Positions 20,605 through 42,617 of a stretch of 64,000 bases of DNA are shown one piece after another (position 1 is the stretch's first letter; each line of letters starts with the position of its first letter). The stretch is taken from the NCBI RefSeq assembly GCF_054482525.1, contig NZ_CM137006.1; one strand, written 5' to 3'. Under the pieces are notes generated by a model. It saw nothing but the letters and a program-made list of their open reading frames with translations. It did not search any database and was not told the origin of the DNA. A program made the translations under genes and the position numbers.

Positions 20605-20980
20605 AGCAAATATCCTTAATTAAAGGTGGTGAGAATGACACTGGATTCGGCACGACAGGCGTGATGGTCGTATTCGAGTAGGAAGATGGTAATATGATTG
20701 CGGAATGCATGAGGAAACGAAGCCAGCAATGACCCAGTGACTCACACCCAATCACAGTGTTAAAAATAAAAAAATCCCGCAATCCAGCGAGGATTGCATT
20801 GGGATAATATCTATCTGTAATTATTTAGAAAAAATGTTTTTTTTCTGAGGTCTATTATAAATTTTTTTCGTTCAGAAACTTCTCGGATATGATCATCTGC
20901 TGAGTACCAAGAACGGACATTGTACCCAATAGTGAGTTAATCATTGGAACGTTGATCACCCCAATTGAAAATTTTCACAA

Positions 20981-21003
20981 TATCCAATATCCAATATCCA
21001 ATA
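20981..21003. repeat. Short tandem repeat (tatccaa x3)
   Basis: tatccaatatccaatatccaatat read directly from sequence. Confidence 0.6.
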
Positions 21004-21032
21004 TATCGGTGTAGAGGGCTTCTCTCTTAAAC

Positions 21033-27525: not shown

Positions 27526-28365
27526 TCAGGACTGAAATCCACTCAACATCGCTTCTGCCATCACCCAGAGAGCCCGGTTGAGCTTCACATCTCCGTCGAT
27601 ACCACGCACGGCGCGGGTATGCGTTCGCCCGCCTTTCGCACTCCGACCACTGAGCCCGCCCTTAATCAGGTTCTCCTGAATACGCTGATATGTGGTCCAC
27701 AGATCATTGCTCTCATCCTGCCAGCGGCGTGGGGAGAGTATCTGAGGTGCTGTCACTGGCTGGTGGTCCTCACCGAAACGGTACGTCAGTGCAGCCTGTG
27801 CCAGAGCCTGTTGTGCAGGTGGCGGCAGCATCAGCGACTGCATGGCATCCCGCTTCTCTTCCACACGGTCAAAAATACCCAGTACTTCATACGCCCCCTC
27901 AATCACCTGACTCACAACATCTCCTTTGTGCGGCACACGCACCTCGCCAAACGACTCACCGCAGACAAGCCCGTTCTGGCATACCGCGCGGAATAATCCC
28001 GGCAGCATCTGATACGAGCTGGTGCCGTCATGAGAGTTGAGCAGAATGATTTCCGGGACTTGCTTGCCGGTAATTTGCCCCTCCCGACGCAGGCGCAGCA
28101 TGTGCTTTGTGTGGTCGCGGCGACCTGGGTCACGCACTCTGGTCTGACAGGCAAAGAAGGGCTGAAAGCCTTCGCGCTGCAGACTGTCGAGGAGAGAAAT
28201 CGTGGGTATATATGTGTACCGTTCACTGCGAGATTCGTGTTTGTCCTCGCTGAAAACACTGGGCACTACACGAAATAGCTCTTCGCGGGTTAACGGACGG
28301 TCACGACGGATAAGATTTGATGCGCCAAAGCGCGAAGCCAGACGGGTCATAAGCAGACTCCTCAT
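27526..28365 (-). CDS. DUF932-family protein (YfjQ/YafZ-like)
   Basis: 279 aa; resembles the CP4-type prophage proteins YfjQ/YafZ; sits next to the YfjP-like GTPase as in CP4-57. Confidence 0.55.
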   Translation of the reverse strand: MRSLLMTRLASRFGASNLIRRDRPLTREELFRVVPSVFSEDKHESRSERYTYIPTISLLDSLQREGFQPFFACQTRVRDPGRRDHTKHMLRLRREGQITGKQVPEIILLNSHDGTSSYQMLPGLFRAVCQNGLVCGESFGEVRVPHKGDVVSQVIEGAYEVLGIFDRVEEKRDAMQSLMLPPPAQQALAQAALTYRFGEDHQPVTAPQILSPRRWQDESNDLWTTYQRIQENLIKGGLSGRSAKGGRTHTRAVRGIDGDVKLNRALWVMAEAMLSGFQS

Positions 28366-28445
28366 GATGGGAAAATAAAGACAGAAAAGCCCTACCGCTC
28401 AATCGCGGCAGGGCTCAGGAAACTACGGGTTAGAAGGGTTAATGT

Positions 28446-29309
28446 TCAGAAGAAGAAGTTCCAGACTGCACGAGCGACCGATACCACGATGTCGCGTACA
28501 GACTGGATGACAGTCCGAACCGGGGACGGTATCAGGGGCATGGAACTTACTGTATCCAGTACCGAGCCGACCGTTTCACCAAAATCGTCGCGGGCTTTTT
28601 TATTAATGGCATCGGTACGAAGTGGATCACTAAGCTGTACCGCCACCGGACTACTGGCCTCCCGCGGCAGGCAATGAATCATCCGTTCAGCCATTACCCG
28701 CAGCCCCCATTGCAAACGTACCGACACCGCACAGACAGGGTTAACAGGTTGGAACAACTCATGCAGTAGACAGATTTTGCGGCTGATATTTTGTTTCTGC
28801 TCTGTAGACAGCTTTTCACCACCGCTGGTGGGTTCAACCTTGTCGGACTGACTGATAACAAACAACACCTTATGCCGGTATGCTTCACCAATCACCTGCA
28901 GGTAAAAATGTTCATCCACCGCTAGTGCTCGATCATCGGCCTTAATCAGCCACAGTACCAGATCGAGTTGCGTCAGTTGCTGGCGATACATCGCAGCATA
29001 TTCCGCATCACGACTTTTGCTTTCACCGACACCGGGCAGATCTACTATGGTCATAAAGCGTTCGCCAACTTGCAGGCGAAAGCGCAAAGGTTCGCGTGTG
29101 CAGGCGCTCACATCGCTGACCGGAGAGATTTTTCCGGCAAACAGCGCATTACAGAGTGATGATTTACCCGACCCGGTTTTCCCCATAATGCCGATCACCG
29201 GCTCATAGTGAGTAAGCTGGTTTACCTGTTGCAGAATACGCTCTGATGCCCACTGCGGCAGGCCAGAAAGCGATTGCTGCAGCGACTGCAAACCTTCAGA
29301 TTTTTTCAT
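28446..29309 (-). CDS. GTPase, YfjP/YkfA/YeeP family
   Basis: P-loop GIMGKTGSGKSSLCNALF, DLPG switch motif; start trimmed to MKKSEGL. Confidence 0.75.
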   Translation of the reverse strand: MKKSEGLQSLQQSLSGLPQWASERILQQVNQLTHYEPVIGIMGKTGSGKSSLCNALFAGKISPVSDVSACTREPLRFRLQVGERFMTIVDLPGVGESKSRDAEYAAMYRQQLTQLDLVLWLIKADDRALAVDEHFYLQVIGEAYRHKVLFVISQSDKVEPTSGGEKLSTEQKQNISRKICLLHELFQPVNPVCAVSVRLQWGLRVMAERMIHCLPREASSPVAVQLSDPLRTDAINKKARDDFGETVGSVLDTVSSMPLIPSPVRTVIQSVRDIVVSVARAVWNFFF

Positions 29310-29431
29310 CACGGTTCCTCTGAAATAAAAAAAACGGCAGAACAATGGAGTTCAGCCGTTAATGAGGTATGTTCAGGGTAATGATATATATCTGTTTCTT
29401 TTTCAGATAAACCCGCGCAATCGATTAGAGA

Positions 29432-30490
29432 TCAGGAATGCGCCCTGACTTTTTCTGTTTTTACCATTAATCCGGCATACTCACGTTCAATAAGTGAGGA
29501 CATTAAATCTGACTCAGACTCACCATATATTTCTGACAGTCTGGCGAGTTTCTTTTTAGTTCTGGCTGAAATTTTTATTGTCATATCGTTCTCTTTAGAC
29601 TGTCTGCGAAACAGTTTCTGATCCCAGGCTTTTTGCAGTTCACCCATCAGGACTGCTTTATGTCGCAGGGGAGAGCGCGGAAGCGTCAGTAAATCAGCGA
29701 AGTTCTGACTCATTTTTTTTCGATTTCCCTTTAAATAACTCAGTTGCTCATGAGTCCAGCCCTCCCACTGATCAAAAGTAGCACAAATAAAAAGCCAGCG
29801 TTGATAGTTATTCAGCGGATTTATCGGAGGGCAAACCGCCTTCTTTTTCATCAGGTTCCATACCCACAAGCACTGTTTTTCATCATTGATATCCAGCCAT
29901 GAAAAAGCTTCAGGAAAGTCACCACAGGCCTGTCCCCATGCAGTATTTATTGCTTTTATTAGCTTGCGCCGGGTTTCAGTTTCTGCATCACAGAGTTCTC
30001 TTAATACACACTCAAAAACATCATCAACTCCAGTTGCCATTTCCCTCATGAATGGTGAGTAAATCCCATTGGCGTAATAAAAATCTGGCGGCATCATCTT
30101 TTTTGGAGTGGACATTTTACCCAGGGTTGATTTTTCAGAAGCTGATTCAAGGTTTGTGTTTAATATGTTTTCTAACAGCTCATCACCTTCATAACCCTTA
30201 CCTTCATTTGTTTGATTAAAATTAAATTCTGGCATCATTCCTGGAAGTGTTGCTGCTTTATTTTTTTCAATACTTAGCTCAATTGACTCCGTCCCCAGAG
30301 CCCTAGCAGATATCTGACTGGGTTCGTCTATATGATCCTGGCGAACAACTGCTGACCTCCACTCACTCAGAAAACGAGCAATATAGAAAAAATAGAAACA
30401 TGCGGCACGGGGATTTTTATCAAGCCACCTCAGCTTCTTTTTTAATAACTTGTATTTTTCTTGAGCGCCCAGCGCCTTCTCTTTGCTCAT
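29432..30490 (-). CDS. Hypothetical protein with C-terminal ribbon-helix-helix-like segment
   Basis: 352 aa; C-terminus MTIKISARTKKKLARLSEIYGESESDLMSSLIEREY looks like a CopG/RHH fold; no other recognisable motif. Confidence 0.45.
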   Translation of the reverse strand: MSKEKALGAQEKYKLLKKKLRWLDKNPRAACFYFFYIARFLSEWRSAVVRQDHIDEPSQISARALGTESIELSIEKNKAATLPGMMPEFNFNQTNEGKGYEGDELLENILNTNLESASEKSTLGKMSTPKKMMPPDFYYANGIYSPFMREMATGVDDVFECVLRELCDAETETRRKLIKAINTAWGQACGDFPEAFSWLDINDEKQCLWVWNLMKKKAVCPPINPLNNYQRWLFICATFDQWEGWTHEQLSYLKGNRKKMSQNFADLLTLPRSPLRHKAVLMGELQKAWDQKLFRRQSKENDMTIKISARTKKKLARLSEIYGESESDLMSSLIEREYAGLMVKTEKVRAHS

Positions 30491-31466
30491 TATTCACCCA
30501 GATTCAGTTTCCATTAATGATGTCATTATGATGTAAAACCATAGGCAATCAACAGGAAAAAATGTAATTTCAAGAGTGAGTAATGATGAATCAATGTATT
30601 TTTTTCGTAGTAGATTCGTAGTAAGATATCGCGTGGCAAAACACTAATTATCAACAGGTTGTAAGTGCTCCCTTCCTCAGACTACCATTACCAATATGGG
30701 ACTGCAGTATGAAGACCCTGGCATGTGAAGTTAAACAACAACGACATGACATTCGTGATGTTGCCATGCGTTGGGGAGTGCAAATCAAACGACCTGCGTC
30801 ATTCCTTCATCAGGATTTCTGCTACCCTGATAGGGTCAGCACCTCCGCACACTTCGTGACAATCGCAACATCAGATGACACCCGATGCGATTGCTGATAT
30901 CGCATTCGTGTTGTTTTCGATAATTAAGGTTAATTAATAATATAGTGCATAGTGCCTGCCCTTTCTCATCCATGCCCCATTTTACCCTTGGACCGTGTTT
31001 CAACATATTTACATTCAGTACCTGTTTCTCCACGCGCTATCTTCCCTGCAAAAAAAAACAGTACCAGGCAATCCTTTGAGCAAAAACCAAAGGATTACTG
31101 AAATACAAAAACACTACCCATCTTTCCAGAATATTATCCCTGATGATTGCCTTCTCAACATGATTAATCACCACCTTAATCAGATGCTGGAACGTTACTC
31201 AAAGATTCTGGCTTTTCGCATGGACTTCAGTTACCGGAAAGGAATCAATAGGTATATCCGTAATTCCGCCCTTGAAATATAGGATGTTCTTCGCGAGTTA
31301 ATGCCATCCATTTTAACCAAAGATGCGTCTGTGGCTGTTTTTGGGCGTTAGAATGGACAAGAGAAGGTGCAGTGCACTCACATGCCATTTTTTATATCAA
31401 TGGACAAAATCATAAGAAATCATTCCCTTTTGTACTGGAGGCAAAAAGCATGTGGTTAAAAATCTC

Positions 31467-31490
31467 GAAGGAAGAAGGAAGAAGGAAGAA
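31467..31490. repeat. Tandem hexamer repeat (gaagga x4)
   Basis: gaaggaagaaggaagaaggaagaa read directly, in the non-coding region upstream of alpA. Confidence 0.6.
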
Positions 31491-31783
31491 TAAAATGGTG
31501 TCCGGCGGATAGTTATCACAGGGATACTATAAACAGAATAGTGGAATAAAAAAATGAGGTTGATGTGCAGAGTTTGAGACGGATAGCCAGCTATCAGACA
31601 AAAGAAGACCAGAAATATGGATTACCAATATGGGGATACAACGAAATTAATTTGCCCGCCAGACAGGGCAGACCGAGGAAGTTTAGTTAGTTTTTTACAG
31701 CAGCACCGGTTGCTATGCCGGAGTGGGTAGTAGTAATTCATCACTGGACTCCGGTACTTATTTAGCTACCGGAGAATCAAATC

Positions 31784-31996
31784 ATGACCAGTAAACCTTC
31801 CTTGTCCGAAGACCAGTTCGTTGATATGGCTTTTATCACCCGCCTGCTGGGGGTCAGCGATAAATGGATTTACCGACTCATTAAGGATGGCATATTTCCA
31901 AAACCCATCAAACTGGGACGAAGCTCCCGCTGGTTACAAAGCGAAGTCGAAGCCTGGCTGCAGGCCCGTATTGATGCATCCCGCCCTCAACACTAA
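31784..31996 (+). CDS. alpA: AlpA-family phage regulatory protein / excisionase-like
   Basis: 70 aa; VDMAFITRLLGVSDKWIYRLIKDGIFPKPIKLGRSSRW is the classic AlpA HTH. Confidence 0.8.
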   Translation: MTSKPSLSEDQFVDMAFITRLLGVSDKWIYRLIKDGIFPKPIKLGRSSRWLQSEVEAWLQARIDASRPQH

Positions 31997-32097
31997 ACCC
32001 TTTCCCGTTCGTTAACAAACAAGTGCGCCATCTCATATCCGCTCCTTGCGGAGGCTTACGTCTGCATGTCAGTTACTCATTAAAGGAATATCAGAAA

Positions 32098-32630
32098 TGA
32101 ACAATTCACCCTTACTCAACCATTACCAGGCCTGGCTGGATGATTTTACCCGCGTCAGTCTGTTCCACGGTTTATGCCAGAAGCACATCTCGCAGTGGCA
32201 CAGGCTGGCGATAACCGCCTGCCCGATGCCAGGCAGTAGCGTAACAGAAGTCGTCATTCCACAGTGTCTGCTGCCGGTTACCCGCACCAGTCGACTGGGA
32301 TCATGTACTGTCGCCCCCGGTCTGACTAAACACATCGATTATGCCCTTCTGCCCGGTGTGCTGCTCAGCGAATGTTATCGACTGGGGAAAAGTCGGCTGG
32401 CAGACCAGTTACAGATGTTATTCCGGCTTAATGTACAGTCCGGTATGCGCCAGGCGCTGATCCTGCTGTGCTGGTGTGAGCTGGCAACAGGTAAGGATAT
32501 GGAGGAATGGTATGCGCTGCATCTGCCACTGCCTGACACGCTGACGCAATGGTTGGCAGTAAAACAGCGGGCATACCGGGGACTGAAGACGCTGACTGAC
32601 GGTTACATTCGTGCCACCCAGCCGATGTGA
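32098..32630 (+). CDS. Hypothetical protein
   Basis: ORF with start trimmed to MNNSPLLNHY; no recognisable domain; operonic with alpA. Confidence 0.4.
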
Positions 32631-32640
32631 GGGACGGATA

Positions 32641-33024
32641 ATGCTGATACCAAAATGCTATATTGCACAGCGTAAAACCGGTGAGATTTTCGCTGTCAGC
32701 CAACTGAATTCAGGCGATGAAGAGTGGTTCTGCCATCACTGCCAGTGCCCGTTGATTTTCCATTCCCCCACCATAACGTCACCGCCCTGGTTCGAACACG
32801 ACATACTTCAGGGACAACCAGAAGCACTGTTGCAATGCCCCTATCTGGCCCCCGTCAATGCAAAGCCTTCAGCGGTGGCTAAGCTACAGCGCCTTCTGGC
32901 ACAACTCCCACCGGTCATCACGACCACACAATGGCAATGTACCATGTGCGGCCTGTCATATTGCGGCGAGAAGTGCTGCCCTCAATGTAGAAAAGGGATA
33001 TATAGTCGGGAGATACGAATTTAG
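32641..33024 (+). CDS. Cys-rich putative zinc-ribbon protein
   Basis: CHHCQC and CTMCG...CCPQC cysteine pairs; 127 aa. Confidence 0.4.
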   Translation: MLIPKCYIAQRKTGEIFAVSQLNSGDEEWFCHHCQCPLIFHSPTITSPPWFEHDILQGQPEALLQCPYLAPVNAKPSAVAKLQRLLAQLPPVITTTQWQCTMCGLSYCGEKCCPQCRKGIYSREIRI

Positions 33025-33351
33025 TGATACGTACCAGGCAATCATGGGATTGATTGGTACACCAGAAAGTTATTATATGGGGGCATATAACTTCGGAGTA
33101 AAAATCAATCACTTTCTATCATCCGGCCCCTGGTGCTTGTGGATTCGTAATTCATAAACCATGACGGGTTGGTAATATTAATTAACCAACTGATATATAA
33201 ACAATATTATCTCATTGTCACGCTCATATACGGTTACTCATACACGACAGCCTTAATTGCTGGCATCACCCTTTAAATCCTTAATCCCTTTAACAGCCCA
33301 TTGCGGGTAAGGCTTTGCCCTGCCCGTAATTTATTACCCAAGGAAAATTAT

Positions 33352-33963
33352 ATGTTTGACAATATCTGTCTCGATAGACGGCATGCACCATTCAACACCA
33401 CTTACCTACAGCGTATTCTACGCGTTATAGATAACGCGACTGCAGAGCATGCACGGACGATGGCAGTTCGGGTAGACCTGCGTCTTCCTGACAATATGCT
33501 CATTAACCGACAGGGCCTGATATCTCGTTTCATTGAATCCCTTGATGCAAAGATTGCAGCGCGCTACAGAAGTAAGTTGAAGCAGGGTAAACGAACATAT
33601 CCATGCCACCTTCGCGATGCCTGGGTTCGGGAGGTGGGTGAGATTAATCAGAAATCGCATTACCACATGGTGTTGTTCGTGAATAACGATACATTCAATG
33701 GGCTGGGGAGTTACAAAGAAGATGGGACGGGCCTGGCGTCCTTGATACGAGAGGCCTGGCTGAGTGCTTTACAGCTTAGTCACCGCCCAGAGCACTGGAC
33801 GCTAGCCCACTATCCCGATAATCCACTTTATTTTCTGGATATTAATTCCGCTGGCTACAAAGAGTCTTATGACCAACTGACGTTTCGGTTAAGTTATTTT
33901 GCGAAGGAACGCACCAAAGATTACAACAGGGAGGAACGTTCATTCGGATGTAGCCAGGGCTGA
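33352..33963 (+). CDS. YagK/YfjJ-family (inovirus Gp2-like) protein
   Basis: Start trimmed to MFDNICLD; resembles CP4-57 YfjJ / CP4-6 YagK. Confidence 0.55.
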   Translation: MFDNICLDRRHAPFNTTYLQRILRVIDNATAEHARTMAVRVDLRLPDNMLINRQGLISRFIESLDAKIAARYRSKLKQGKRTYPCHLRDAWVREVGEINQKSHYHMVLFVNNDTFNGLGSYKEDGTGLASLIREAWLSALQLSHRPEHWTLAHYPDNPLYFLDINSAGYKESYDQLTFRLSYFAKERTKDYNREERSFGCSQG

Positions 33964-34753
33964 ATTCGGTACATCGTTTTGCTGGTGGCACTATATTTGC
34001 GCCACAACGCCATAGTGTGTCAACCACACCGCTATTCCCCTCACAATACCGTTAAACCATTCAACCACATGGCGTCAGTCTGCCCATCAAGGGCGGCTTA
34101 CACCTGCTTGCAGAAGTCGGATTATATTTGACGCCAACGACGGTAATAGTCGTTTGACGAGCGCCAGAACGGTACAGAAAGATATATAGTATCGTAGGCA
34201 GGCTTGATACCCCTGTTATCGTGCAGTCTTGGCACTGCGCTTGGTTCGGATACCATTACTAGGGCAAAAAGCACTGTGTGGTCTGTGGTATCGGGAAATA
34301 TAGCACGGAAGAATCAAACTGGCTGATGAATGACACCAGAGCGCCTGCGTGAGGTCCACCGTATTTCCTCCAACCAACACAGAGAAAAAATCATAATGAG
34401 CTACCACCAGTTAATCATCACAAATACAAAGTCGGCGGACAGTGCACGCATTCACCACGTATTACAGCAACCCGGATGGTTTCGAAATACAATTGGCAGC
34501 GTTGAAAGAGGTTGCATTGCAAATGGTTTTTTCAGTGATGACTGCCTGCAGTGACCTGTTTAAATGATCACTGTCACGTTATCTGGATTGCGCAGTTGCT
34601 TGGGTTGCAGTATGTCTCATCTTAGACTGTGTTGATGTTATTGTTGAGATCAGCACTCCGGCAGATGGCCAAATTCAGTAAACCACTTCAAAAGGCACAT
34701 TTATGCAACCTCATCAGCGGTGACCCGTAAAAATTGCAAATTAAGGAGCAATA

Positions 34754-36853
34754 ATGAACCGAGAGCAAGCCCAACAACTGCTGCAGACTGCTTTGGCTAA
34801 CCCTGCTGCTGAATTTCGTGATGGTCAGTGGGAAGCCATTGATGCATTGGTTAATCGTCGTCAGAAACTACTGGTTGTACAGCGTACCGGCTGGGGTAAG
34901 AGCTCGGTTTATTTTATTAGTACTAAAATCTTCCGTGACCGCGAGATGGGGCCTACGATTATTGTATCGCCACTGCTTGCATTAATGCGTAACCAGATTG
35001 ATTCAGCGCAGCGTTTGGGAATAGTTGCCGAAACAATGAATTCGGCTAATAGGGAGGATTGGCAGGCTGTAACTCAACGAATTCTCAATAACCAAATAGA
35101 CTGTTTGCTCATTTCCCCAGAGCGGCTAGCAAATGATACCTTTATTGAGACGGTCCTTCAGCCCATTGCCGATCGAATCGCCCTAATGGTAATTGACGAA
35201 GCACACTGTATTTCAGATTGGGGTCATGATTTTCGTCCTGATTATCGCCGTATCGTAAATATCCTTCGTCAATTGCCCGCCAACACCCCAGTACTAGGTA
35301 CGACTGCAACTGCCAATAACCGAGTTGTTGACGATATCCAAGCCCAGCTTGGGGATATACAAATCCACCGAGGTCCTCTTACTCGCGAAAGCCTCGCTCT
35401 GCATACAATGTCTTTACCCGATCAGGCATCTCGTTTAGCTTGGCTCGCCCAAGTTATTCCGATGCTACATGGAACAGGCATTATTTACGCATTAACAGTT
35501 CGTGATGCCGAGCAGGTGGCAGAATGGTTGAGCATGCACGGTATAGTTGCCATGGCATACCACGGTAGCATCGAGGCTGAAGGTTTTGAGAACAGCAATG
35601 CTTACCGTCAGTACTTAGAAGAATTGTTACTTAACAACCAGCTTAAGGTTTTAGTAGCAACGACCGCGTTGGGTATGGGTTATGATAAACCTGATTTAAG
35701 TTTTGTAATCCATTACCAAGCTCCGAGTTCAATTGTTGCATACTACCAGCAGGTGGGTCGGGCTGGGCGCGGTATTGCTCATGCAACAGGTGTACTGATG
35801 TCGGGGATAGAAGATAACGACATCCATGATTTTTTCCGTGATTCTGCATTTCCATCGGAGGATCAAGTTAACGATATTCTTCGAGTGTTGGAAAATAATG
35901 ATGGTCTATCACTCCGCAACATCGAGGAAAAAACTAACCTACGCCACGGCCAGATTGAGAAAGTACTTAAGTTACTGAGTGTAGAAAATCCAGCCCCCAT
36001 CATTAAAAATGAAAATCGTTGGGTTAGGACCACAGTTCGCTATCAAATGGATCATGCCCGAATTGCTCATTTGACAGGACAACGTATTCAGGAATGGGAA
36101 GAGGTTCAAGCGTACCTTACCGACACTGGATGCAAAATGGCATTTCTACGTCGTTCTCTGGACGATCTCGACCCAACTCCATGTGGTAAATGCTCGTCCT
36201 GTATTGGTCAACCAATTATAAATCAAATCATTGACCCTGCTTTGGTACATCGTGCAGGGACTTTCCTAAAACATGCAGAAATGCCGATTACTCCAAAAGC
36301 TCAGGTAGCAGCTAATGCTTTTTTGCAATATGGCTTCAGCGGCAATTTGCCACAGCAGATTAGAGCACAAGAAGGTCGAGTGTTGTCTCGCTGGGGAGAT
36401 GCTGGTTGGGGACGGTTAGTAGCCGATAATAAACGTGCAGATCACTTTGATGATGAGCTAGTGGTTGCTATGGCCGAGATGATTCAGCAGCGTTGGCAAC
36501 CGAATCCAGCGCCACAATGGGTATGCTGTGTACCTTCACGCAATCATGTACAATTAGTCCCTGATTTCGCTCGCCGCTTGGCGGCATGTTTGAGGTTGCC
36601 TTTTTTCAATGCCATCAGCAAGGTTAGAGATAACCAACCTCAAAAGGGGCAACAAAACCGTTTCCATCAATGCCGCAATCTGGACGGTGCTTTTGAGATA
36701 AATCAACCTCTACCTAACACACCGGTTCTACTTGTAGATGACATTGTAGATTCAGGCTGGACGTTAACTGTCATCGCAGCACTCCTACAACGCGCAGGTA
36801 GTGGTAAAGTATACCCTGTTGCACTTGCTTCATCTTCGGTAAAAGACTCATGA
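34754..36853 (+). CDS. RecQ-family helicase fused to a C-terminal phosphoribosyltransferase-like domain (PsyrT-like)
   Basis: Helicase motifs GWGKS (I), DEAH (II), TATA (III), QQVGRAGR (VI); C-terminal type-I PRTase motif VLLVDDIVDSGWTLT. Confidence 0.8.
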   Translation: MNREQAQQLLQTALANPAAEFRDGQWEAIDALVNRRQKLLVVQRTGWGKSSVYFISTKIFRDREMGPTIIVSPLLALMRNQIDSAQRLGIVAETMNSANREDWQAVTQRILNNQIDCLLISPERLANDTFIETVLQPIADRIALMVIDEAHCISDWGHDFRPDYRRIVNILRQLPANTPVLGTTATANNRVVDDIQAQLGDIQIHRGPLTRESLALHTMSLPDQASRLAWLAQVIPMLHGTGIIYALTVRDAEQVAEWLSMHGIVAMAYHGSIEAEGFENSNAYRQYLEELLLNNQLKVLVATTALGMGYDKPDLSFVIHYQAPSSIVAYYQQVGRAGRGIAHATGVLMSGIEDNDIHDFFRDSAFPSEDQVNDILRVLENNDGLSLRNIEEKTNLRHGQIEKVLKLLSVENPAPIIKNENRWVRTTVRYQMDHARIAHLTGQRIQEWEEVQAYLTDTGCKMAFLRRSLDDLDPTPCGKCSSCIGQPIINQIIDPALVHRAGTFLKHAEMPITPKAQVAANAFLQYGFSGNLPQQIRAQEGRVLSRWGDAGWGRLVADNKRADHFDDELVVAMAEMIQQRWQPNPAPQWVCCVPSRNHVQLVPDFARRLAACLRLPFFNAISKVRDNQPQKGQQNRFHQCRNLDGAFEINQPLPNTPVLLVDDIVDSGWTLTVIAALLQRAGSGKVYPVALASSSVKDS

Positions 36854-38175
36854 ATGTATCTAACTTATTGTCAAAAACAGCCCAGGCGACCTTACTTCTG
36901 ACTAGTTATTTTTCTAAAGCAACTAGCGAAAACGCCAAACCACTTTCCAACGCCGAATGGGGACGTTTTGCGCTATGGTTGAAAGAAAAAGCAGTTACGC
37001 CAGCTGACTTGTTGGACTCTGATCCTCAAACCTTACTGAATGGCTGGTACGACTCCCGTATCAGTACGGATCGGATCATTGAGTTGATGAATCGAGGACA
37101 TAGCCTCGCTTTGGCTATGGAGAAATGGCAACGGGCAGGCTTGTGGGTAGTGACACGTTCTGATCCAGAATATCCATGGAGATTAAAACATCGGCTTAAA
37201 ACAGACTCTCCCCCTGTTTTATTTGGCTGTGGCAATAAAGCCTTATTAAATAGAGGGGGATTGGCTGTCATTGGTTCTCGAAATGCCAATGCATCAGACC
37301 TTACTTTTACTGATCACATCGGCGTTAAAGCTGCGGACGAAAATATAGCTGTTGTATCTGGTGCTGCACGTGGAGTAGACGAAACAGCCATGTTAGGTGC
37401 AATGAGGCAAGGTGGAGTTGTAATCGGGATTTTGGCAGATAGCCTGTTAAAAGCTGCGACTAGTGCCAAATGGCGCAAGGGGCTTATGAATGACCATGTT
37501 GTGCTAATATCCCCTTTTTACCCTGAGGCTGGTTTCTATGCGGGAAATGCCATGGCTCGCAATAAATATATCTATTGCTTGTCGGATAGTGCATTGGTTA
37601 TTCATTCTGGTCGAAAAGGTGGAACAATTAGTGGGGCAGAGGAAAATCTTAAGAAAGGATGGGTGCCACTATGGGTCAATCCAACAACCGATCTAGATTC
37701 AGCTAATGCTGACTTAGTGAGCAAAGGGGGACATTGGTTGCCAAGTGATAGTAATGGCCTATCCATCGAGAATTTGCTTAAAAATAATGACAGATCAAAA
37801 ATGCAGTTAAAAGCAGAGCCCCAAGATCTTTTTTCAGAATTGTCGCATCCAGAATTAATTATTGGATCTGCAGAGAAATCGTCAACTCAAGCTCTCGAAA
37901 AAGATTGGACTGCTACTATTAATGAAGAAACTCCCAACCTAATAACTACGGAAAAAAAATTAGAGGAAAAAGAGTTAGATGTAAATCCTATAGACTTTTA
38001 TCTGCTATTCAGGACAGAATTACAGCGATTGGCCGAACATCCAATTACAGTAGATAGGTTGACAGAAGTCACTGGGTTGAATAAATCGCAAGTGCTTGAT
38101 TGGTTGAAACGTGCTGAACAAGATGGTTTGGTAAAAAAACTAAACCGTCCTACAAGATATCAATTAAATGAGTAG
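36850..38175 (+). CDS. DprA/Smf-like Rossmann-fold protein with C-terminal winged helix (PsyrA/ShosA-like)
   Basis: DprA core LAVIGSRNA...VVSGAARGVDETAMLGA...GGTI; ATGA start/stop overlap with the upstream helicase gene. Confidence 0.75.
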   Translation: MNVSNLLSKTAQATLLLTSYFSKATSENAKPLSNAEWGRFALWLKEKAVTPADLLDSDPQTLLNGWYDSRISTDRIIELMNRGHSLALAMEKWQRAGLWVVTRSDPEYPWRLKHRLKTDSPPVLFGCGNKALLNRGGLAVIGSRNANASDLTFTDHIGVKAADENIAVVSGAARGVDETAMLGAMRQGGVVIGILADSLLKAATSAKWRKGLMNDHVVLISPFYPEAGFYAGNAMARNKYIYCLSDSALVIHSGRKGGTISGAEENLKKGWVPLWVNPTTDLDSANADLVSKGGHWLPSDSNGLSIENLLKNNDRSKMQLKAEPQDLFSELSHPELIIGSAEKSSTQALEKDWTATINEETPNLITTEKKLEEKELDVNPIDFYLLFRTELQRLAEHPITVDRLTEVTGLNKSQVLDWLKRAEQDGLVKKLNRPTRYQLNE

Positions 38176-42534: not shown

Positions 42535-42558
42535 TTTGAAATGGTGCCGATAATAGGA
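42535..42558. repeat. Proximal att-like repeat overlapping the tRNA-Thr 3' end
   Basis: tttgaaatggtgccgataatagga; partner at 18971..18992. Confidence 0.5.
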
Positions 42559-42617
42559 GTCGAACCTACGACCTTCGCATTACGAATGCGCTGCTCTACC
42601 AACTGAGCTATATCGGC
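42542..42617 (-). tRNA. thrW: tRNA-Thr (anticodon CGU)
   Basis: Reverse complement reads GCCGATATAGCTCAGTTGGTAGAGCAGCGCATTCGTAATGCG...TTCGACTCC...CACCA: cloverleaf arms, CGT anticodon in the loop, encoded CCA. Confidence 0.85.

Follow-up and report, generated by a model that had tools for sequence, protein, structure and literature searches.

A dead Gp2-type gene and a divergent control region probably make up the largest gene-free stretch of a thrW genomic island

AlpA-family proteins have been described in several settings that resemble the one considered here. In the CP4So island, AlpA is an excisionase and the alpA promoter is silenced by H-NS, according to passages of the report on that system (PMC5148205). 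In Pseudomonas aeruginosa, AlpA is an antiterminator; its binding element lies between the -35 and -10 hexamers, and an intrinsic terminator precedes the first gene (PMC7969949). Passages of a report on Pseudomonas tmRNA islands place a Gp2-like open reading frame (ORF) immediately before alpA in islands I23, I44, and I55, and propose Gp2-like protein plus AlpA as the likely core module of these islands (10.1101/2024.08.29.610337). The island studied here is similar to CP4-57/CP4So-type islands in that an AlpA-family gene is preceded by an AT-rich control region. It is inserted, however, at tRNA-Thr(CGT) rather than at ssrA. As in the P. aeruginosa AlpA system, an element (here an invariant one) is found in the spacer of a promoter-like site and terminator-like hairpins stand before the first intact gene. 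However, the box found here, AATTAAGGTTAATT, has no sequence relationship to GGGACGN5GGTA, the element of Pseudomonas, and the likeness is one of analogy only. Neither this box nor the alpA leader described below is mentioned in the passages of PMC5148205 and 10.1101/2024.08.29.610337 that a term search retrieved.

The DNA analyzed, hereafter the window, is 64,000 nt long and includes a genomic island that adjoins tRNA-Thr(CGT) at positions 42542 to 42617 (thrW island). Its segment 30400 to 31900 is 100% identical to the chromosome of Escherichia coli SCU-102, and the whole stretch from 30491 to 31783 is present in 1 of 5,426 complete E. coli genomes, that of SCU-102. The RefSeq record of this strain has zero annotated features between a 352-aa hypothetical gene and the 70-aa gene that follows the stretch. 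The initial annotation had described an AT-rich, non-coding stretch without a gene. Low GC content (40.8%, versus 44.5% in the island and 49.4% in the window) and the lack of any intact annotated gene between 30491 and 31783 bear this out, but "non-coding" is accurate only in the sense that no intact gene is left, since a full-length pseudogene takes up 45% of the stretch (Table 1). We conclude, with a probability of about 0.88, that the stretch consists of a divergent control region and a dead gene that is the first of the rightward Gp2-alpA module in this island.

Table 1. Positions of genes, lesions, and candidate control elements in and around the stretch (window coordinates)
Feature	Position	Strand	Basis or remark
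352-aa hypothetical gene	29432-30490	minus	RefSeq; left border of the stretch
AT-rich, lineage-specific spacer in divergent intergenic region	30491-30916	.	No homologs
Candidate leftward promoter of 352-aa gene, TTGATT-16-CATAAT	30552..30525	minus	Promoter scan
Orphan ORF62, 62 codons	30709-30897	plus	No Pfam or NCBIfam match
Terminator-like hairpin	30884-30906	plus	Terminator scan
Promoter-like site, TCGATA-18-TATAGT	30917-30946	plus	Promoter scan; sole plus-strand promoter-like site
Invariant box ATAATTAAGGTTAATT, a 16-mer, also given as AATTAAGGTTAATT	30920-30935	plus	Within the promoter spacer
Conserved end of 5' UTR: A-run, CAG, then 9-bp hairpin	31050-31102	plus	Alignment
5' UTR hairpin arms AATCCTTTG / CAAAGGATT	31070-31078 / 31088-31096	plus	Alignment
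Gp2-type pseudogene (193-aa protein, REP_ORF2-G2P, HUH-like)	31103-31690	plus	tblastn, DNA alignments, synteny
Lesion 1, start codon ATG to ATA	31103-31105	plus	ATG in 9 of 9 orthologs aligned over the start
Lesion 2, Gln codon CAG/CAA to nonsense TAG	31280-31282	plus	Ends ORF 30995-31282
Lesion 3, 1-bp deletion outside a homopolymer, -1 frame	31321-31327	plus	Ortholog alignment, frame check
Lesion 4, GAAGGAA x3.4 with one extra 7-bp unit, +1 frame	31467-31490	plus	TRF; 7-column gap in 5 of 5 orthologs
Lesion 5, TAT/CAC to nonsense TAA	31547-31549	plus	Ortholog alignment, frame check
alpA leader, 93 nt, from Gp2 stop to alpA ATG	31691-31783	plus	Alignments; order TTTTTTAC, ACCGGT, arm A, arm B, U-rich tail, arm C
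Leader arm A TGCCGGAGT	31716-31724	plus	
Leader arm B ACTCCGGTA, followed by U-rich tail	31748-31756	plus	
Leader arm C TACCGGAG	31767-31774	plus	Contains the alpA ribosome-binding sequence
Intact alpA-like gene, 70 aa	31784-31996	plus	PF05930 Phage_AlpA, 38.3 bits (cutoff 21)
Integrase-sized ORF, 413 aa	41176-42417		Named by size only

The pseudogene is recognized by its end-to-end correspondence to intact genes. Residues 1 to 192 of the 193-aa ortholog from E. coli S43 match 31103 to 31684 in tblastn (E 8e-58), and DNA alignments to five orthologs reveal collinearity over all 193 codons, spread over two reading frames. Intact examples include WP_039026316.1 (E. coli S43) and WP_057107875.1 (E. 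coli Combat11I9); the product names of the orthologs are "inovirus-type Gp2 protein" or "rolling circle replication-associated protein." Synteny agrees with this assignment. A leftward hypothetical gene, an intact Gp2 gene, and alpA directly downstream of it occur in this order at 15 loci, namely those of E. coli S43, Combat11I9, Combat13F7, and FAM21845 and 11 loci from other genera. The latter were found in Enterobacterales by a pattern scan for the Gp2/leader/alpA layout in one genome per species, and they come from Yersinia, Hafnia, Serratia, Rahnella, Brenneria, Buttiauxella, Pectobacterium, Lelliottia, Cedecea, and Enterobacter. Two of the 13 hits of the genome scan, in Agathobacter (L008) and Saccharibacteria (L018), were excluded as chance matches.

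Compared with the intact genes of the S43/Combat11I9 type, the window copy has the same length, position, invariant residues, upstream box, 5' UTR hairpin, and leader, but differs by five disabling lesions. Its repaired translation keeps all the residues that are invariant in the family (R39/D41, H92xH94, Y162xxK165E166, and GRPR) and shares with the orthologs the motifs FRMDF, HxH, YxxKE, and C-terminal GRPR. Among 5.8 billion clustered proteins, the best intact relative of the repaired protein is 73% identical to it (E 1.3e-94). Because even the nearest intact protein is only this similar after repair, the window copy represents a divergent Gp2-type lineage known only as a pseudogene. The initial annotation had suggested a decayed paralog of the YagK/YfjJ family, whose N-terminal region ORF 30995-31282 would resemble. 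The ORF exists and contains the peptide quoted there, and a decayed Gp2/YfjJ-like gene is indeed present; what the ORF holds, though, is just the N-terminal piece of a complete collinear copy.

The five lesions, identified by DNA alignments to five orthologs together with a frame check, are independent of one another and absent from all orthologs. The position of the 1-bp deletion is uncertain within about 31310 to 31327, one alignment putting the gap slightly upstream. Owing to the two indels (-1 and +7), the homology switches to the frame of ORF 31372-31512, in which the HUH-motif segment is read, and later resumes the original frame (net +6), which is that of ORF 31565-31690. The insertion responsible for the second shift coincides with what had been described as a gaagga x4 microsatellite. 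A perfect tandem repeat is real at that place, with a lag-7 match run of 17 compared with a longest run of 14 in 200 shuffles, but the repeat unit is 7 nt long and GAAGGA itself occurs three times. Nor is the repeat a separate feature, since it sits within the pseudogene and its extra unit, the third GAAGGAA, is the 7-bp frameshift. Removal of one unit yields the collinear protein KISKEEGRIKWC, to be compared with DITRSEGKIRWC in the nearest ortholog (L003), and the repeat was created by a 7-bp tandem duplication.

Assignment of the pseudogene to a protein family led away from YagK/YfjJ. The S43 ortholog matches Pfam PF23343 (REP_ORF2-G2P) at 28.9 bits, above the gathering cutoff of 27.8, and the repaired window translation scores 21.9 bits, under that cutoff. 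Neither protein matches PF11726 (YagK_YfjJ_C) at E ≤ 0.01, and the neighboring YfjJ-like gene at about 33352 to 33963 does so at 162.8 bits. The suggestion that the fragment belonged to the YagK/YfjJ family as a paralog of this neighbor, to be checked by alignment to the intact gene, was not sustained: BLASTP of the two proteins gave a nonsignificant E of 0.36, tblastn returned no significant plus-strand match, and the two proteins match different PHROG families. NCBIfam has no model for either Gp2-type protein. At the profile level, an hhalign match to the YfjJ-like protein is weak (E 0.0045, probability 7.7%) but collinear, with three motifs aligned, and a few members of the S43-type subfamily (P0009, P0015, and P0023) carry precomputed PF11726 hits. 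Since the pairwise tests are negative, the profile match is weak but collinear, and a few members have PF11726 hits, the pseudogene seems to represent a sister subfamily within a Gp2/HUH-like superfamily and not a recent paralog of the neighbor gene. The two types, the second of which (PF11726) is represented in K-12 by YfjJ of CP4-57 and YagK of CP4-6, share an NCBI product name class (inovirus Gp2 family), the three-motif layout in the profile comparison, and their occurrence in alpA-containing islands.

The histidines H92 and H94 of the HUH motif are invariant in the family; the motif reads HSH in the window, where it lies in the shifted frame, and mostly HAH in the orthologs. A YxxK tyrosine motif with invariant Y162, K165, and E166 is located C-terminal to it. 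Judged by its sequence, the Gp2-type protein would be HUH-like and a putative nuclease, which the window copy cannot encode. A sequence-profile search of solved structures with the Gp2-type protein gave no match, and the matches to HUH rolling-circle Rep endonucleases (SIRV1 ORF119, parvovirus NS1, AAV Rep, and Helitron) were found among generic alpha/beta folds of equal score, namely Thg1, GGDEF, and the reverse-transcriptase palm.

Two conserved elements precede the former Gp2 start. The first is the 16-nt box, which holds the palindrome AATTAA-GG-TTAATT and is found about 150 to 190 nt upstream of the Gp2 start. Of 10 aligned loci, 9 have it unchanged and Hafnia (L010) has one mismatch, and its flanks are unalignable. 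The exact 16-mer occurs in eight related loci, and the window has one exact copy (16/16), where 0.62 near-matches are expected by chance. Promoter-like sites are as frequent in this region as expected by chance (4 found, 3.8 expected). We infer from its conserved box that the sigma-70-like site at 30917 to 30946 is a candidate promoter/operator of the rightward Gp2-alpA unit. The second element is the 5' UTR hairpin, whose 3' arm includes the ribosome-binding sequence AAGGA (31090 to 31094). This hairpin belongs to the single-sequence MFE fold; 97.8% of its cells are paired in the alignment, and it has two compensatory pairs, with a covariation score reached by 3 of 500 shuffles. The compensatory changes represent essentially one clade event, and this covariation would also fit a palindromic DNA site.

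The third element, the alpA leader, is more conserved than coding DNA. Even where the Gp2 gene of an E. coli island is too diverged for blastn to detect, the leader is still 83 to 86% identical, and its arms do not vary among 13 distinct sequences that represent at least 10 genera. Arm B can pair either with arm A, to form a terminator-like hairpin (terminator scan call at 31743 to 31755), or with arm C, which would occlude the ribosome-binding sequence. Invariance of the arms leaves 0 compensatory pairs in the A:B and B:C hairpins, and for this reason the leader could be any of three things: a set of protein-binding DNA repeats, an intrinsic terminator, or an RNA switch. Its single-sequence fold z-score of -1.46 is not significant. 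Two further candidates within the leader were rejected: an outer stem proposed by RNAalifold, whose pairing the ACC/ACG variants disrupt with no compensating change, and a sigma-70 promoter with hexamers TTTACA and TATGCC just 14 nt apart. The alpA gene that follows is annotated in SCU-102 RefSeq as a helix-turn-helix gene and is 76 to 94% identical to alpA of the related loci. Among solved structures, the window AlpA comes closest to an AlpA-family protein, 8c3t (E 1.9e-4), and to 1z4h, which is the excisionase TorI (E 0.0036), and no antitermination-complex chain is named among its structure matches.

It had been proposed that the stretch carries the alpA promoter, and the conserved promoter-like box at 30917 to 30946 together with the leader makes this plausible. 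Where transcription of alpA begins bears on the strongest alternative to our reading, namely, that alpA is driven only from a promoter of its own, in or just upstream of the leader, and that the box is a relic of the dead Gp2 gene. In E. coli 2273-PO3 (L006), the leader is present without a Gp2 gene upstream, and the box there precedes a Gp2 gene at another place, so that alpA may be served by a promoter of its own. The terminator-like hairpin between Gp2 and alpA points in the same direction. However, the promoter scan found no acceptable sigma-70 hexamer pair in the leader, and the box still matches at 16 of 16 positions though the ORF has accumulated five lesions. The intact box is weak evidence against a relic, because little evolutionary time has passed since inactivation. 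Exclusive transcription of alpA from its own promoter is thus a possibility to be taken seriously, although we favor a rightward unit that begins at the box.

Since 31103 to 31690 is a pseudogene and conserved control regions flank it, the part of the stretch left without assignment shrinks to 30491 to 30916. A blastn search with 30491 to 31102 in complete genomes of E. coli and in plasmids and phages retrieved SCU-102 itself only, tblastx of 30491 to 30920 against 17 related loci found no match, and self-comparison in the window found no repeat. ORF62 has no Pfam or NCBIfam match. A HMMER search with it in 1.84 billion representatives returned only four giant tandem-repeat proteins by summed weak repeat matches, which were rejected as homologs. 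We infer that 30491 to 30916 is a lineage-specific spacer holding a candidate leftward promoter. An Rfam 15 scan of 28000 to 36000 (E ≤ 1) yielded nothing in the stretch and two sub-threshold matches, both outside it.

These results also bear on a reading close to that of the initial annotation, in which the stretch is a non-coding, AT-rich spacer where the promoter of alpA lies together with a microsatellite that is a feature in its own right, a short remnant of the N terminus of a YfjJ-like gene, and perhaps a small RNA. Such a spacer would agree with the featureless RefSeq twin and the low GC content, and the terminator-like hairpin upstream of the box could end a short transcript. Yet the Gp2 homology spans all 193 codons and so extends beyond the N terminus, the repeat falls within this homology and explains one frameshift, and the small RNA is unsupported, with no Rfam match and no conservation of 30491 to 30916 in any relative. 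We consider this reading very improbable.

With respect to the timing of inactivation, the dN/dS ratio of 0.074 relative to L003 is within the range of intact pairs (0.06 to 0.13), which shows purifying selection during most of the gene's history and relatively late inactivation. A small non-synonymous excess is seen in the window lineage (pN of 0.237 to 0.250, versus 0.214 to 0.221 for L003 with the same outgroups). It might be argued that the gene is still alive, either as a phase-variable gene switched by slippage of GAAGGAA or in the form of separate functional polypeptides that ORFs 30995-31282, 31372-31512, and 31565-31690 would encode. Heptanucleotide repeats are able to slip, the -1 and +7 indels jointly recover the original frame, and the three ORFs jointly span all the motifs. 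But in a contingency locus the repeat would be the sole obstacle to an open frame, and here four more lesions are found outside it that slippage cannot mend: the lost start codon (ATA), the nonsense codons at 31280 (TAG) and 31547 (TAA), and the deletion of 1 bp. Moreover, the repeat has only 3.4 units and is present in no ortholog, the HUH and tyrosine motifs would reside on separate peptides, and the fragments start with GTG, not ATG. A living gene is therefore scarcely credible. An assembly artefact leaving the gene intact in the organism is just as unlikely: the sequence is known from one assembly only (SCU-102, identical to the window) and indel errors do arise in long-read assemblies, but three lesions of the five arose by base substitution (start, TAG, and TAA), the 1-bp deletion is outside a homopolymer, a clean 7-bp tandem duplication is untypical of error, and the window lineage has the extra non-synonymous divergence given above.

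If the dead Gp2 gene and its control region are parts of one rightward unit, as we favor, a transcript from the box-bearing promoter would start near 30953 and run through the pseudogene toward alpA. The 5' UTR hairpin would occlude the ribosome-binding site ahead of the former Gp2 start, and the transcript would terminate at, or read through, the terminator-like hairpin of the leader before alpA, so that the two hairpins would gate translation or read-through. The cis elements were kept during decay of the ORF, probably because alpA and the downstream genes are still under their control. With the Gp2 ORF untranslated (a 590-nt pseudogene), read-through into alpA would probably be lowered by polarity, and reduced alpA read-through would favor a quiescent island.

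More speculatively, the invariant box AATTAAGGTTAATT in the promoter spacer, the nested and nearly invariant CCGG inverted repeats of the leader, and the HUH-like Gp2 protein with its GRPRK tail at the C terminus might form one conserved switch of a widespread class of Enterobacterales islands, an idea that we hold to be doubtful. On the basis of the positional parallel with the architecture of the Pseudomonas AlpA antiterminator, such a switch may be an antitermination loop in which AlpA is loaded in a Q-like manner and transcription reads through the leader hairpin. Alternatively, the leader may be a hairpin substrate (origin or nick site) of the HUH protein, coupling excision to rolling-circle replication. 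If a switch of this kind existed, the SCU-102 island would be a natural Gp2-null mutant.

To conclude, an unannotated 588-bp pseudogene accounts for the largest "empty" stretch of the island, and a supposed microsatellite and a small-RNA candidate are removed from its annotation. What the stretch records is the ordinary decay of an island gene, not a new element. The Gp2-type gene is dispensable for the chromosomal upkeep of the island, and the control elements that flank it persist. Three strongly conserved non-coding elements have come to light, i.e., the promoter box, the 5' UTR hairpin, and the alpA leader, and the number of genera that share an element ranges from 7 to at least 10. These elements provide targets for studying the regulation of Gp2-alpA modules, which passages of the literature note as a likely core of islands and leave uncharacterized.

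The invariant 16-mer box, AATTAAGGTTAATT, has variants in related islands. The variants GTTTAAGGTTAATT and ATTTAAGGTTGATT lie in reversed orientation, about 40-80 nt upstream of a leftward hypothetical gene, in islands that carry a more distant Gp2 subfamily. E. coli 2273-PO3 (locus L006) has a further variant, located upstream of a Gp2 gene that itself sits downstream of alpA. Judged from these placements, the box would act like a portable promoter/operator module. It was not found in the AT-rich gap of 330 bp (33022-33351; ~38% GC) upstream of the intact YfjJ-like gene.

The E. coli 2273-PO3 locus keeps the conserved alpA leader (within L006:2655-3093) and has no Gp2 gene between the leftward gene and alpA, which are separated by only 440 bp; this arrangement represents a naturally occurring variant of the Gp2-alpA module, produced by deletion or rearrangement. 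Homologs of the divergent 352-aa gene (29432-30490, minus strand), for which no family was found in Pfam or NCBIfam, occupy the equivalent divergent position with ~40% identity in this locus and in two other related loci, L016 and L017. Flanking the 352-aa gene is a weak covariance-model match to CyaR/RyeE (24.8 bits versus a gathering score of 47; E 0.45), which is probably due to chance.

Elsewhere in the island, genes for a GTP pyrophosphokinase and a nucleoid-associated protein precede an integrase-sized ORF and tRNA-Thr. Together with the RecQ-family helicase and DprA genes, they are unusual cargo for a CP4-type island. At 20978-21004 lies another perfect tandem repeat with a 7-nt unit, CAATATC x3.9.

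Features of the window and of related loci (coordinates without a locus handle refer to the window)
Feature	Position	Strand	Remark
GRPR(K) tail, window copy	31670-31687		translated
CyaR/RyeE-like match	29328-29409	-	between GTPase gene and 352-aa gene
RecQ-family helicase and DprA genes	within 34754-38175		after YfjJ-like gene, same orientation
Box variant	L004/L005:2070-2083	-	
Box variant	L007:379	-	
Box variant	L011:3717	-	
Box variant	L012:1283	-	
Box variant	L006:2730	-	
Box variant	L006:4401	+	
Damaged-looking Gp2-type gene copy	L014:6821-7402		Rahnella ecdela; in-frame TAG (...LNA*EHQ...)
Damaged-looking Gp2-type gene copy	L009:2371-2947		Yersinia artesiana; split tblastn match

Two other copies of the Gp2-type gene look damaged, and the tblastn match to the Yersinia artesiana copy falls into two pieces 4 nt apart near the C-terminus, which points to a frameshift. 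As read from these sequences, decay of the gene may be recurrent. Every member of the Gp2-type family carries GRPR(K) as an invariant C-terminal tail (ARQGRPRK; columns 187-190 of alignment A5) that resembles an AT-hook. Since the tail is AT-hook-like and the gene has an AT-rich conserved box upstream of it, it is conceivable that the Gp2-type protein regulates its own expression via this box.
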